Source: a virus | Lineage: Duplodnaviria > Heunggongvirae > Uroviricota > Caudoviricetes | Reading direction: 5' to 3' (one strand) | IMG/VR virus record: IMGVR_UViG_3300031133_000383 | Location: 373,044 to 437,043 of that record | DNA length: 64,000 nucleotides | Part shown: positions 2,569-16,194 of the stretch, one piece after another | Numbering within the stretch: the stretch's first letter is position 1 | Layout of the letters: each line of letters opens with the position of its first letter | Notes under the pieces: generated by a model | The model's input: only the letters and a program-made list of their open reading frames with translations | Database searches by the model: none | What the model was told of the DNA's origin: nothing | Translations under genes and position numbers: made by a program

Positions 2569-2655
2569 TTTTGTTTAGGCTTGTAGCTCAGATGGTAGAG
2601 CGGAGGGCAGAAACCCTCGCGTCGGAGATTCGATTTCTTCCTCGCCTAGACAAAA
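2569..2655 (+). ncRNA. tRNA-Phe-like RNA with 6-nt anticodon loop, extended acceptor stem, no CCA
   Basis: Canonical D and T arms; GAGGG-CAGAAA-CCCTC; paralog at 16119. Confidence 0.7.
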
Positions 2656-2811
2656 TTTTTTATTTTTAATCAATCAAAGATGACAGCTATTTGAACTCTG
2701 GATTGGTGTAATGATTTTTTTCAACAACCTTGAGCTTGATGTTTTCAAAAAAGAAATCATGGTTAAAAATCTTGACTTCTTTAGCATCTGATGCTAATAT
2801 AACCACACAAA

Positions 2812-2895
2812 GCCCGAGTGGTGAAATGGTAGACGCGGGGGACTTAAAATCCCCTTCCTTACGGAGTGCCGGTTCGAGTCCGGCCTCGGGCACCA
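2812..2895 (+). tRNA. tRNA-Leu(TAA)
   Basis: Cloverleaf, loop CTTAAAA, CCA. Confidence 0.95.
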
Positions 2896-2903
2896 AATTT
2901 TAT

Positions 2904-2977
2904 TTCTCGTTAGTTTAACGGTAGAACAGCGGCCTCTAAAACCGTGTATGCGGGTTCGAATCCCGCACGAGGAACCA
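2904..2977 (+). tRNA. amber suppressor tRNA (anticodon CTA)
   Basis: GCGGC-CTCTAAA-ACCGT anticodon arm; intact D, T and acceptor arms; CCA. Confidence 0.85.
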
Positions 2978-2984
2978 GTATCAT

Positions 2985-3061
2985 GGGACTTTAGCTCAGT
3001 TGGTTAGAGCGTCCGACTCATAATCGGCAGGTCGTAGGTTCAAGTCCTACAAGTCCCACCA
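2985..3061 (+). tRNA. tRNA-CAT, probably Ile2 (lysidine type)
   Basis: Loop CTCATAA; paired 1-72; body resembles bacterial tRNA-Ile2. Confidence 0.85.
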
Positions 3062-3138
3062 AATTATCAAAAATTGTCTATATATTGTATATTTCCTTTA
3101 ATCAGGACAATTTGTTGCTACATCCTCTGAGGTGCCAA

Positions 3139-3489
3139 ATGAATTCAATTGATGTGAATAAAATAACCCCATCTTGGTATGTCAAAGATAATATTCTTTT
3201 TTTAGATATTCATTATTGGAAACGTAACGAAACAACAGAAGGCCACTGTGGAAGCACTCTAATTTGGAGGAAGACTATCATAAATGGCAATCTGATCGCC
3301 GCTTATAATTCCATAGTAAAATCAGCTAAAAAATATTTTGATTTACCCTACCTTAAAAAAATCAAGGTGGATAAGTCACCTGCAGTAACGCCTATTGATG
3401 AAAATCATGACTTTGATTTCTATCATCCTCTAGTAGTTTTTTTTATCGGGGTGCTTGTCGGTATGATTTTTATTAAAATGTTGAATTAA
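3139..3489 (+). CDS. hypothetical protein with C-terminal TM anchor
   Basis: GAGGTG RBS before ATG 3139; hydrophobic tail. Confidence 0.7.
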   Translation: MNSIDVNKITPSWYVKDNILFLDIHYWKRNETTEGHCGSTLIWRKTIINGNLIAAYNSIVKSAKKYFDLPYLKKIKVDKSPAVTPIDENHDFDFYHPLVVFFIGVLVGMIFIKMLN

Positions 3490-3523
3490 CTTTTTAATTT
3501 CGATACAGTATGGATATCTATTA

Positions 3524-4726
3524 ATGACAAACCGCCTTGAACTACTGTTAGCGAATACGCCTATTGAATCTGTTTTTGATCATTCAGATTTTAGTGTTGT
3601 TACAGAAGCTGCTAATGTAGGCGAAGTCAGTTTCAATCATTTTGATTTTTTAACTGATAAATCGTATACCGCTACTACCTTTTTCACTGGTCTTGTTCAA
3701 TCTCTTTCTTTTATCTTTCCAAATTTTACGATTTCCGAAATTAAAAGTTTAAGTTCTACGGCTTACTTTTACTTTGACATTTTCCCATTTCCTCAGATTA
3801 TGAATGATATGCATGCTTCTAATTTCAAAGTGCATGTACTTAATCGAAAAGATACAGTTCGTGTAAATTTCAACCTCTTTACTCTTTCGTTTCGTTTTAA
3901 AAAATGGATTTTTAGTTTTAGTGATACGTTCAAAAAAGAACAGGAAATGGAATCCATTTCTTTTGTTAATATTCATACTGCTATGCTGAGATCTTTTAAA
4001 GAATTGATTTCAGATGTCATGATTAAGCCACCTCTATTATTTAATAATGCAATCTTCAAGAAAATTATTGAAAATAAATCTAACTTTTCCTTTAACTCCA
4101 TGCGTTATGAAGATGTTTTTACACACGAAACTGATGTCAATTTTTCTAGGCATATTAAAAAAATTCAACCGTTGATGATTGTAGGCGATCTTCGCTCTAT
4201 CAAGGGTGTTGCTCAACCAGCTATGTTGTATGTAAAAGGTGATATTCGCGTAACTCGTAATGTTTTGAATGTTGCTAAATCAAGTGAAACACAAGTATAT
4301 TTTCGTTATGAATCCCTTGATTTTATAGACTCGCTATTTTCAGTGACTTTTTCTTCTGAGCAACTATCTTCTTTACGAAAGATACTTAATTTGATTAACA
4401 AGATTAATATTTGTTTTGAAAAAGAAGCGTATTCAGGTATTGAAGTCATTCGTATTAACAATTCCAAAAAAGCTATTTATAATTTGATTAAAGAAAAAAA
4501 TGCATTTCATATTACATTTGGTAGAACTAGTATTCATATCAATCGTTATATTGAATGCTCTATAATTATTAATAATTCATACCAATCTATCAAAGTTGAA
4601 AGTTTTGAAGAAGCTTTTAATTGTATTTATCAGGCATTCGCTGTACACGTTGCTAATTATTTTAATATTGATCAAAGCCTAGTGAATGATGACTATATCA
4701 ACTTATTGGAAATGGTTCGTCATTGA
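3524..4726 (+). CDS. hypothetical protein, C-terminal M-x-x-x signature group
   Basis: 400 aa; ends LLEMVRH. Confidence 0.8.
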   Translation: MTNRLELLLANTPIESVFDHSDFSVVTEAANVGEVSFNHFDFLTDKSYTATTFFTGLVQSLSFIFPNFTISEIKSLSSTAYFYFDIFPFPQIMNDMHASNFKVHVLNRKDTVRVNFNLFTLSFRFKKWIFSFSDTFKKEQEMESISFVNIHTAMLRSFKELISDVMIKPPLLFNNAIFKKIIENKSNFSFNSMRYEDVFTHETDVNFSRHIKKIQPLMIVGDLRSIKGVAQPAMLYVKGDIRVTRNVLNVAKSSETQVYFRYESLDFIDSLFSVTFSSEQLSSLRKILNLINKINICFEKEAYSGIEVIRINNSKKAIYNLIKEKNAFHITFGRTSIHINRYIECSIIINNSYQSIKVESFEEAFNCIYQAFAVHVANYFNIDQSLVNDDYINLLEMVRH

Positions 4727-4784
4727 CTTTTTTTTATAATTTTATATACTTCTTTTATTTTTATAATATTATTTCGGAGAATAT

Positions 4785-5492
4785 ATGATTAAAATTATGG
4801 AGTATATTGGCCCAGTCTTTACTGTAAATAATCCTCGATATAAACTAGTGCCTATTGAAGAAACAATACAATCTGCCTGTGTCAATGATGACTGTATCAA
4901 TTATCATCAGCCTCTTTTTGATGGTGTCTTTTGTCCTTTTTGTGGGATGAAAGGAGAGTCTTTTTCTTATACAGTTGATCGTTATTTAACACAAGAACTT
5001 GTTCCCGAAGATGAACAATGTAATCTCTATCTCAAAGCAATAGAACTAGAATCCAGAACGCTTCGTTTTATTCCAAAATTCAAGTCTTATCAATATAGCC
5101 CAAGTTTTTCGTTAATTCATTTTGTTTCAAAAAAATGTTCAAATTATACTTGCCAAGACAACAACCACGAATATCATGATGATTATGATTTTTGTTATCA
5201 GTGTGGATCTAAACTTTCAAATAATATTGATTCTCAACAAAATACTATATTTATTGATGATATTTTAAAAGAACAGAAAAATCAAATATCCTTAATTTTA
5301 TGTGATTCAATAGAACATTATGTTCTGCATAATTTGGATGAATTGATTTCAACACCGTTATTTGATCAGTTTATTATTGATTTCATGAACAGAAAAGAAT
5401 ACAAATCAATTATTAAAGAACTTGAATATATTTATGGTACAGGTACAGTTGTTGTTGAAAATAGACATATAACTTATCGACCAGATATTTAA
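4785..5492 (+). CDS. protein with two zinc-ribbon repeats
   Basis: CxxxxC..FCPFCG and CxxxxC..FCYQCG. Confidence 0.7.
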   Translation: MIKIMEYIGPVFTVNNPRYKLVPIEETIQSACVNDDCINYHQPLFDGVFCPFCGMKGESFSYTVDRYLTQELVPEDEQCNLYLKAIELESRTLRFIPKFKSYQYSPSFSLIHFVSKKCSNYTCQDNNHEYHDDYDFCYQCGSKLSNNIDSQQNTIFIDDILKEQKNQISLILCDSIEHYVLHNLDELISTPLFDQFIIDFMNRKEYKSIIKELEYIYGTGTVVVENRHITYRPDI

Positions 5493-5664
5493 GAATTCTC
5501 TGTTATTTATGAATACATATTGAATTTTTAAGAGGATGGGAAAAATATCTTGACCTTTAGTAAAAATCTTGATATTATTATAGGTATTAAAGCCTACAGC
5601 AGGTTTCCTATGGAGTATGCTAAGTGTTTAATGCATACAACTAACTGTTACTGCTGTTTATTTT

Positions 5665-15230: not shown

Positions 15231-15260
15231 GATATAATTTTCAAAATTCTAAAAAAACGT

Positions 15261-15289
15261 TTGACATCTGAAATGAGTTTTGATATAGT
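15261..15289 (+). promoter_or_regulatory. near-consensus sigma70 promoter
   Basis: TTGACA-17-TATAGT. Confidence 0.85.
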
Positions 15290-15307
15290 TATCTCATTGA
15301 AACAAAT

Positions 15308-15522
15308 AAGGGATTGAGTGTTTAAGGCTCAATGTTAATTCAGTGTGGTCGGGGCGTGAATTAAGTGCTAGTGGCACATGGTTAATTGAAGCTTGATAAA
15401 ATCAAGCTTATGTAGAAATGGCGAAAGCCAGTTCAGTAGCGAGTCCTTTAAAGCCCGTTTTGGTTTTCAAGGAAAGTGGGTCACTCAGGCAATCCCATCT
15501 TACTCGTCAGTCCTGATTTAAT
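15308..15522 (+). ncRNA. structured ncRNA family C, copy 2
   Basis: Paralog of 12116-12332; abuts tRNA-Asn. Confidence 0.8.
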
Positions 15523-15598
15523 TGGTAAATAGCTCAGTCGGTAGAGCAGGTGACTGTTAATCACCGGGTCGTAGGTTCGAGTCCTACTTTACCAGCCA
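15523..15598 (+). tRNA. tRNA-Asn(GTT)
   Basis: Loop CTGTTAA, G73, CCA. Confidence 0.95.
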
Positions 15599-15625
15599 TA
15601 TTTTATAGATACAAGAGATTAGATA

Positions 15626-15838
15626 ATGAGCAGATCGGTCAGAGGTTCTAAGGGTAGTGGTTACGACTACTGGGGCAAACGTGCAAAGAGTTGTTGTTCA
15701 CCCGGTCGTGTCAATAAGAAGTTGACGTTGGGTATTGAAAGAATGCGTGAACATCAACTGGTATCGTATGAACTTGATCTTGTTGCTGATGTTCATAACC
15801 ACTTTGAACACGAAGTTCAAGTACTTAAAGTTTTGTAA
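15626..15838 (+). CDS. small basic phage protein within tRNA cluster
   Basis: MSRSVRGSKGSGYDYWGKR N-terminus. Confidence 0.7.
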   Translation: MSRSVRGSKGSGYDYWGKRAKSCCSPGRVNKKLTLGIERMREHQLVSYELDLVADVHNHFEHEVQVLKVL

Positions 15839-15853
15839 TTTAAAATGTTTTGA

Positions 15854-15930
15854 AGCGGGGTAGAGAAGCCCGGTAACTCACCAGTCTCATAAGCTGGAGA
15901 TCGCAGGTTCAAATCCTGCCCCCGCAACCA
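15854..15930 (+). tRNA. tRNA-Met(CAT), initiator-like
   Basis: A1:A72 mismatch, GCGGGG acceptor, CAT, CCA. Confidence 0.88.
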
Positions 15931-16029
15931 CTTCGGACACCTAGCGTGTCCACCTGTGAAGAACAACACAGAGGCGATTTAGCCTGAATCAAACGACTGT
16001 GAGTAAACACAGTTTTTAAAAATCATTAT

Positions 16030-16105
16030 GCCGTCTTAGCTCAGTTGGTAGAGCAACTGACTTGTAATCAGTAGGTCGTGAGTTCGAGTCCCACAGACGG
16101 CACCA
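16030..16105 (+). tRNA. tRNA-Thr(TGT)
   Basis: Loop CTTGTAA, CCA. Confidence 0.95.
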
Positions 16106-16118
16106 GATTTGTAGTTTT

Positions 16119-16194
16119 GTCCTTTGTAGCTCAGATGGTAGAGCGGGCGTTAGAAGACGCCGCGTCATAGGTTCGATTCCTATCGGGGACACCA
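16119..16194 (+). ncRNA. tRNA-Phe-like RNA with 6-nt anticodon loop and encoded CCA
   Basis: GGCGT-TAGAAG-ACGCC; D arm and variable loop identical to the 2569 copy. Confidence 0.75.

Follow-up and report, generated by a model that had tools for sequence, protein, structure and literature searches.

tRNA-Phe-derived genes lacking U33 at the 3' ends of phage tRNA operons are candidate non-decoding tRNA mimics

Can a phage keep a gene with the body of a phenylalanine tRNA (tRNA-Phe) for something other than decoding? This question is raised by two tRNA-Phe-like genes in the last 64 kb of the 437,043-bp IMG/VR virus record IMGVR_UViG_3300031133_000383 (GC content, 31%); this whole 64,000-nucleotide (nt) stretch is referred to here as the window. 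The two genes, termed copy 1 (2577-2648) and copy 2 (16119-16194), lie on the plus strand, as do all window features given below, and each is the final gene of its tRNA operon. A first-pass annotation had described a shared D arm, a shared GCGTC variable loop and TTCGATT T loop, stems that differ yet still pair, and 6-nt anticodon loops with A rather than U before GAA, and all of these are present in the sequence. Our analysis of the two genes and their relatives suggests, with roughly even confidence, that both are tRNA-Phe-derived, non-decoding tRNA mimics that are kept by selection and made at the 3' end of tRNA operons.

Two genes with a tRNA-Phe body and six-nucleotide anticodon loops

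Copy 2 is a 76-nt gene that scored 31.4 bits against the Rfam tRNA model (match, 16120-16191; gathering cut-off, 29 bits) and 95.2 bits against the family model R1. A perfect 5-bp anticodon stem (16146-16150/16157-16161) closes the 6-nt loop TAGAAG (16151-16156), the T arm spans 16167-16183, and A73 (16191) is followed by an encoded CCA (16192-16194). Copy 1 scored 40.4 bits with the Rfam tRNA model and 78.5 bits with R1. Its D arm (2586-2601), variable loop (2619-2623), T arm (2624-2640), and A73 (2648) are in place, and its perfect 5-bp anticodon stem (2603-2607/2614-2618) carries the 6-nt loop CAGAAA (2608-2613); it has neither CCA nor an extra acceptor U. The acceptor stem of copy 1 (2577-2583/2641-2647) is mismatched at 5-68 and 6-67, and the flank 2569-2576 pairs with 2649-2655 to form an extended outer helix (2569-2655; closing helix, 11-12 bp), directly followed by a T-run (2656-2667). 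The cloverleaf was the minimum-free-energy fold of copy 1 (-32.1 kcal/mol; z = -2.8) only when these flanks were included; when the 72-nt core was folded alone, the acceptor stem stayed unclosed. The acceptor stems had been called irregular in both genes, one with CCA and the other with an extension instead; copy 1 does have a mismatched, flank-extended stem, and copy 2 has the CCA. The copy 2 helix itself, however, is a regular 7-bp helix save for one extra U in its 8-nt 5' strand (16119-16126, with the U nominally at 16125; 3' strand, 16184-16190), a feature that is kept in the family.

The two copies have in common 23 nt (2581-2603 and 16124-16146) that start at the end of the 5' acceptor strand and take in the D arm, in addition to the variable loop and the T loop, while their anticodon stems differ in sequence and are both fully paired. 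The D arm, variable loop, and T loop are of the ordinary phage tRNA-Phe type, and the T arm of copy 2 is identical to that of the canonical tRNA-Phe of the Xanthomonas phage XacN1; both genes therefore derive from tRNA-Phe. Pattern scans of IMG/VR, allowing any loop length, recovered about 100 tRNA-Phe genes with the same D arm or T arm, all of which possess 7-nt loops with U33; eight apparent 16-nt anticodon arms from these scans were really 7-nt loops with a 4-nt variable loop. Of the 26 tRNA genes that ARAGORN called in the 437-kb genome, none was a canonical tRNA-Phe, and the Rfam tRNA model together with our own model located exactly two Phe-like loci, copies 1 and 2. ARAGORN called copy 2 with a 4-base anticodon ("agaa") and missed copy 1. 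No phenylalanyl-tRNA synthetase (PheRS) was found in the phage, the sole related match, at about 209 kb, being a class II enzyme (G/H/P/S/T type).

A short loop may also be an assembly error, and the first-pass annotation had named reads with a 7-nt loop as its sign. In metagenomes, searching for 16-nt anticodon arms brought up dozens of cases that combine a CTGAAA or TTTTAA loop with a perfect acceptor stem, clustered in a few samples; these short loops are homopolymer deletions, as are most other metagenomic 6-nt loops. Such deletions cannot be the origin of the loops in the window. An independent ENA assembly (L307), from a strain distinguished by a TnpB insertion, has exactly the same copy 1, and contigs of three further runs cover this gene gap-free, which rules out assembly error here. 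For copy 2, the evidence against such an error is indirect and comes from assemblies of relatives. These relatives were collected by means of a marker, the 366-amino-acid (aa) protein encoded just downstream of copy 2, with homologues from 92% down to 42% identity; in the 92% relative, JGI, ENA, and Logan assemblies agree exactly on the orthologue of copy 2, whose loop is again 6 nt long. Four runs were silent on copy 2 itself, as its bin was swamped by tRNA-Thr matches of other organisms and the adjoining bin had no cover. The TnpB gene of the L307 strain (OrfB_IS605/Cas12f-like; L307:1308-2405) is inserted just upstream of tRNA-Leu(CAA), the head of the copy 1 operon, and leaves the tRNA region unaltered.

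A covarying family marked by an added acceptor U and purine 33

Orthologues of copy 2 occupy the same operon slot, with tRNA-Thr on the 5' side and the same terminator on the 3' side. The whole module, consisting of tRNA-Asn, tRNA-Met, tRNA-Thr, the odd gene, and an identical 23-nt UUCG-loop terminator, was found in the 92% (L268-L270), 57% (L146, L248), 43% (L310), and 42% (L308, L309) relatives. Homologues were also found in three other metagenomic lineages. The member in L225 follows four canonical tRNA-Phe genes in an operon, on a 1.86-Mb JGI contig that also bears the L269 copy of the module, and the members in L171 and in L160/L194/L208 lie within Asp/Phe tRNA arrays on contigs with 22% GC. 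Since these other family members share an operon or array with several (4-6) canonical tRNA-Phe genes, they are extra species rather than the decoder. No orthologue of copy 1 was found; the 400-aa protein encoded downstream of it is an orphan, and in L146 and L268 a tRNA-Arg lies upstream of the corresponding tRNA-Leu(UAA), the place where copy 1 would be expected.

To assess selection on the fold, we analyzed covariation among eight members: copy 2, four phage-relative lineages, and the three other metagenomic lineages (nine members once copy 1 is added). In this set, 99.4% of stem cells were paired, with double-sided changes in 10 of the 21 pairs; stem covariation was also seen in an alignment to which copy 1 was added. 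None of 500 shuffles reached the family value, and slid controls paired at ≤46%. Because the stems covary strongly, the fold is under purifying selection and the genes are not simple pseudogenes, in support of the earlier view that selection rather than decay had kept the structure. Moreover, the loss of pairing and of tertiary positions with divergence that would mark a pseudogene was not seen; the D and T loops are invariant and the tertiary-pair positions are intact across the family.

The acceptor stem showed a second shared feature, which the first-pass annotation had not noted. All eight members have 8 nt in the 5' acceptor strand against 7 nt in the 3' strand. When the stem was read as six pairs, an extra U, and G7-C66, 100% of cells were paired and five of the seven pairs showed compensatory changes. 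The extra U and G7-C66 are invariant (8/8), and U6-G67 is present in seven members. Regular acceptor stems, by comparison, were found in 67 of 70 fetched tRNA-like sequences with 7-nt loops and in 56 sequences with 6-nt homopolymer-deletion loops. Among the canonical sequences fetched, the bulged register fits one marginal case in 70, and it is nearly confined to loops without U33. A covariance model built from the family scored its members at 78 to 96 bits and canonical tRNA-Phe at ≤77 bits.

The anticodon loop drifts in sequence and length between lineages. The claim of a conserved 6-nt YAGAAR loop did not hold: besides CAGAAA (three lineages) and TAGAAG, the 6-nt loops include TGGAAG, CGAAAA, and GGAGAA, and loops of 7 nt (TAGGACA and GACCAAA) occur in L308 and L310, the most distant of the phage orthologues. 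Homologues with other loop lengths, which the first-pass annotation had listed as evidence against its reading, thus exist in part; the family instead conserves its tRNA body, the extra acceptor U, and a purine at residue 33. All nine members carry A or G at this residue, as against U in the ~100 phage tRNA-Phe genes and in the other tRNAs encoded on these contigs. GAA stands at loop positions 3-5 in both window copies and in the 92% and 57% orthologues, L171 has AAA, and GAA is not kept in L308, L310, or L225. The closing pair 31-39 varies (UA, AU, GC, or CG), and its covariation means that the loop has not been opened to 8 nt; the arm measures 16 nt, not 18. A reading of the loops as GNRA tetraloops, with a pyrimidine-purine pair closing RNRA, was rejected for the family, as it fits all seven 6-nt loops and not the 7-nt loops of L308 and L310; a GNRA-type local structure is possible in the 6-nt loops. 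Measured against an elongator tRNA-Phe, the window genes have a cloverleaf above the Rfam threshold and lack the 7-nt loop with U33 and purine 37 as well as the regular acceptor with a free NCCA. U33 is reported to be critical for cognate decoding (PMC12202706).

IMG/VR pattern scans did not find the family pattern apart from this record. In GTDB (185,579 species genomes), the purine-33 pattern gave 0 matches and the general 16-nt-arm pattern 26 matches, none of this family. BLAST searches of cultured phages with copy 2 returned canonical tRNAs only, plus an unrelated oddity in the T4-like Yersinia phage MHG19 (OQ331036.1). This phage carries two unannotated tRNA-like genes (L306:1837-1909 and 2104-2178) with perfect 5-bp anticodon stems, the 6-nt loops AAAGAC and TAGACG, and regular acceptor stems; the second has no match in any other record of the phage collection. 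Another recurring tRNA-like element with a 6-nt loop and covarying stems was observed in L151, L196, and L244 (ATTCCC/ATTCCA) and in L238 and L279 (a Lachnospiraceae metagenome-assembled genome; GTAAAA). Its flanks lengthen the acceptor helix and are followed by a long T-run, a layout that resembles copy 1. Two of the arrays on 22% GC contigs (L208:9575-11946 and L171:5182-7085) consist of 12 to 14 highly diverged tRNA-Asp/tRNA-Phe genes. Directly after each array lies a monomeric PheRS-like gene with a class II core F and, in L208, a ferredoxin-fold anticodon-binding domain; nearby genes encode LolA, an AAA ATPase, and an RRXRR-HNH protein.

Mimicry weighed against decoding and other roles

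The family combines a selected fold with conserved non-canonical functional ends. Its "anticodon" can vary freely, and other genomes carry the RNA alongside canonical tRNA-Phe. The lack of U33, the short loop, the irregular acceptors, and the relatives that sit beside canonical tRNA-Phe agree with the earlier proposal that these are non-decoding RNAs, unlike a normal tRNA, and they make normal decoding by copies 1 and 2 appear unlikely. By analogy, the RNAs would probably serve as decoys for a tRNA-binding host factor, a reading to which we are led by tRNA-repair ligases and by published phage tRNAs that counter PARIS, retron, and other tRNA-targeting systems. Two RNA ligase genes are located 10 to 17 kb upstream of the window (genome positions 355896-356471 and 363206-363790; Pfam RNA_ligase, 60 bits; T4 Rnl1-type, 103 bits), which suggests that the phage has a capacity for tRNA repair; the T4 Rnl1 enzyme mends tRNA cleaved by an anticodon nuclease. 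The role of phage tRNAs in counter-defense has been documented (PMC10264068, PMC11464382, PMC11555353, PMC13056530).

In the mechanism that we propose, each RNA would be transcribed from a host-type promoter as the last gene of a tRNA operon and would fold into the normal L-shaped body, with copy 2 probably being trimmed to a 76-nt RNA ending in A-CCA. Without U33, the U-turn for normal codon reading would not form, while the tRNA elbow and acceptor end would remain on show. The RNA could then act by occupying a protein that recognizes tRNA shape, the likeliest target being a host defense nuclease or modifier that acts on tRNA; to such an enzyme the RNA would be a decoy that is hard to cleave. 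Given the identity rules of synthetases, a Phe-type body with GGA or CCA would be expected to be a poor substrate for the matching synthetases. A tentative extension, which we regard as doubtful, is that the family is a "programmable" decoy in which the body, the extra U, and A-CCA are fixed and the loop is swapped per lineage (Phe-like GAA, Trp-like CCAAA, Ser-like GGA) to match the tRNA hit by the local host anticodon nuclease; purine 33 and the often missing nucleotide would leave the RNA bound, uncut, and unused by the ribosome.

Several observations weigh against the interpretation as mimics. The 89, 87, and 76% relatives lack the odd gene and have a different terminator immediately behind tRNA-Thr, and in a 55% relative the slot is filled by tRNA-Cys; this patchy distribution implies that the RNA is dispensable in some lineages. 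The 23-nt terminator, identical in five lineages with marker identity down to 42%, is better kept than the stems of the RNA that precedes it. It may belong to the functional RNA or be the sign of a laterally moving cassette, and a recent lateral spread of this cassette could weaken the argument from depth of conservation. Furthermore, GAA is retained in each of the four closest loops, as are A73, U20, and U59/U60 in the body; PheRS may still charge these RNAs, and even some decoding may occur. Copy 1, with no orthologue, extra U, or CCA, could be a decaying or cis-acting derivative. Finally, neither a partner protein nor a target was obtained for these RNAs.

The retained GAA bears on the possibility that the genes encode a working tRNA-Phe, in which the compact loop shows GAA, reads UUC/UUU, and evades an anticodon nuclease that needs a normal loop. 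This would suit a genome without canonical tRNA-Phe, and GAA lies at loop positions 3-5 in both copies and in the 92% and 57% orthologues (AAA in L171). The window copies also possess A73, U20, and U59/U60, which, like GAA, are PheRS identity elements. Nuclease-escaping phage tRNAs with altered anticodon loops are, moreover, known (PMC10264068). We nevertheless find this reading unlikely: a purine replaces U33, reported to be critical for cognate decoding (PMC12202706), in every member, the 42-43% orthologues keep the Phe-type body yet show GGA and CCA as anticodon, other members coexist with 4-6 canonical tRNA-Phe genes, and the extra acceptor U is unparalleled in the canonical tRNA-Phe genes fetched. 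The same identity elements, together with the A-CCA encoded in most members, could point to a non-ribosomal amino-acid donor, a charged RNA that its altered ends keep off EF-Tu and the ribosome and that feeds an aminoacyl-tRNA-dependent transferase, as does a Staphylococcus aureus tRNA-Gly. Dedicated non-proteogenic tRNAs have precedent (PMC7826273), and a PheRS-like gene follows the member-bearing arrays in L171 and L208. However, no transferase gene that travels with the RNA was recognized among the 20 neighboring open reading frames (ORFs), save for a sub-cut-off GNAT match at 9239-9769; the window phage has no PheRS, the GAA needed by PheRS is lost or shifted in four lineages, and two members lack CCA where the other tRNAs of the genome encode it, making a donor role rather improbable. 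Frameshift-promoting tRNAs, which had also been put forward, would read a doublet (-1) with the 6-nt loop or a quadruplet (+1, codon UUCU) with an opened 8-nt loop. ARAGORN models 2- or 4-base anticodons for these genes, and a passage of PMC12202706 that cites Bruce et al. 1986 describes doublet decoding as tolerant of a U33A change. The covarying closing pair nevertheless argues that the loop is not 8 nt, and the loop sequence is unconserved. A screen of the 437 kb yielded 12 overlapping frame pairs and no convincing split genes, the three pairs without an internal start being ordinary neighboring genes, although short or 3'-terminal shifts escape this screen. This explanation has the least support and is, in our judgment, very improbable.

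The position of both copies as the last gene before a terminator could instead mean that the tRNA fold acts in cis, as an RNase P or RNase E entry signal between the upstream tRNAs and the terminator, without acting as a free RNA. Five lineages have an identical terminator behind copy 2 or its orthologue, linked to the gene, and in copy 1 the flanks seal the fold ahead of the T-run. On the other hand, relatives process the same tRNA-Thr operon without the odd gene, and the L225, L171, and L160 members are internal to their arrays, with further tRNAs or an ORF rather than a terminator on the 3' side. An encoded A-CCA, an invariant extra U, and the avoidance of U33 would also be needless for a processing signal, so that we hold such an element to be improbable. 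The remaining explanation, that these are decaying and functionless tRNA-Phe pseudogenes, is most plausible for copy 1, with its two acceptor mismatches and its lack of CCA and of an orthologue. It is also consistent with the slot being empty or taken by tRNA-Cys in some relatives, with the drift of the loop sequence, and with the frequency of artefacts among metagenomic short loops. Yet it is already disfavored by the 99.4% of paired stem cells and the 10 doubly changed pairs among eight sequences. The extra U and purine 33 are invariant though the stems turned over between lineages, which also left the D and T loops and the tertiary-pair positions undamaged; decay is accordingly quite unlikely.

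Genomic setting and comparison with known tRNAs

Consensus scans placed both genes at the ends of operons with near-consensus sigma-70-type promoters. A sigma-70-like promoter at 15261-15289 (TTGACA, 17-nt spacer, TATAGT, with TG) heads the operon of tRNA-Asn, tRNA-Met, tRNA-Thr (called by ARAGORN at 15523, 15854, and 16030), and copy 2. Just after copy 2, an intrinsic terminator was read in the sequence at 16202-16224, with a UUCG-loop hairpin and a U-run; its 23 nt are identical after every phage orthologue of copy 2. The operon that runs from tRNA-Leu(CAA) to copy 1 is headed by a sigma-70-like promoter at 2057-2085 (TTGACT, 17-nt spacer, TAATAT, with TG). A terminator-like hairpin (2545-2562) lies just upstream of copy 1, and a second sigma-70-like promoter (2772-2800) heads the next operon.

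A 796-aa protein of the phage has ~45% identity to proteins of the Xanthomonas jumbo phages XacN1 and Xoo-sp13, indicating a distant link. An altered genetic code was considered and rejected, as code 11 fits and reading TAG as sense adds little. A canonical-looking amber-suppressor tRNA (anticodon CUA) is present at 2904-2977 of the window, although the standard code reads the genome well. Two copies of it occur in XacN1 (L114:6548-6706) and one in Xoo-sp13 (L115:4292-4367), so that this tRNA is a conserved feature of this jumbo-phage group. The ORF at 9239-9769, directly after tRNA-Cys, has a weak match to GNAT acetyltransferases (22.4 bits; cut-off, 23.6 bits). Some GNAT toxins acetylate charged tRNAs; no link between this ORF and the odd tRNAs was found. 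The 92% relative, with the same gene order across 21 kb, lies within L268, an ENA contig of 1,281,823 bp, and L269/L225, a JGI contig of 1,859,102 bp (Ga0308158_10000001). These 1.3- and 1.9-Mb contigs of two assemblies could be concatenated strain mixtures, or something far larger than the IMG/VR record indicates.

Compared with known RNAs, the clear evolutionary source of the family is the canonical bacterial and phage tRNA-Phe(GAA), as in XacN1 and Xoo-sp13, which shares the D arm, variable loop, T arm (identical to that of copy 2), A73, and GAA. It differs in having a 7-nt loop with U33 and a regular 7-bp acceptor, where the present genes have 6 nt, a purine at 33, and an extra U or mismatches. 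By description only, we presume a likeness to the end of the T4 tRNA cluster, where the small stable RNAs species 1 and 2 (rnaC/rnaD) are co-transcribed non-tRNA RNAs; these are longer and are not full cloverleaves. Similar in setting are the counter-defense tRNAs, such as the T5 tRNA-Lys that counters PARIS, the tRNA-Tyr that counters retron effectors, and loop-mutant phage tRNAs, which are likewise phage encoded, located in tRNA clusters, and equipped with anticodon loops unlike those of the host, and are thought to blunt tRNA-targeting immunity (PMC11464382, PMC11555353, PMC10264068). Those are working tRNAs with substituted 7-nt loops that replace the cleaved host tRNA. The present genes share the phage tRNA cluster and the host-unlike loop and probably differ in decoding competence, in that U33 is absent, the loop is short in most members and varies in length, the "anticodon" varies, and the acceptor is altered; this suggests titration rather than replacement of a host tRNA. 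Frameshift-suppressor and quadruplet tRNAs (sufD, SufB2, and engineered quadruplet tRNAs; PMC9094753, PMC8464047) also have a loop of non-standard size, and ARAGORN gave copy 2 a 4-base label. They carry, however, an 8-nt loop on a 5-bp stem and keep U33, whereas the arm described here is one nucleotide shorter than normal and its closing pair covaries. The non-proteogenic tRNA-Gly genes of S. aureus (PMC7826273) are similar as extra isoacceptor-like genes with odd features thought to bar EF-Tu and the ribosome; they differ in their normal anticodon loop and acceptor, in being charged, and in their known Fem transferase partners.

In the literature, we found no phrase for a six-nucleotide anticodon loop and no description of this family, which appears to be undescribed and to be kin to phage tRNA-like RNAs and counter-defense tRNAs. 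A caution for annotation also arises. Standard tRNA finders miss them or name them Trp, Ser, Leu, or "4-base anticodon"; across the family, ARAGORN modeled the loops as 2- or 4-base anticodons and called TAGGACA a tRNA-Ser and GACCAAA a tRNA-Trp. The debate on phage tRNAs has so far set codon supplements against replacements for tRNAs destroyed by immunity. If the reading of these genes as mimics is true, they would represent a third role for a tRNA-shaped phage RNA, the titration of a tRNA-binding factor, and an RNA bait with defined variants would provide a concrete handle for finding that factor.

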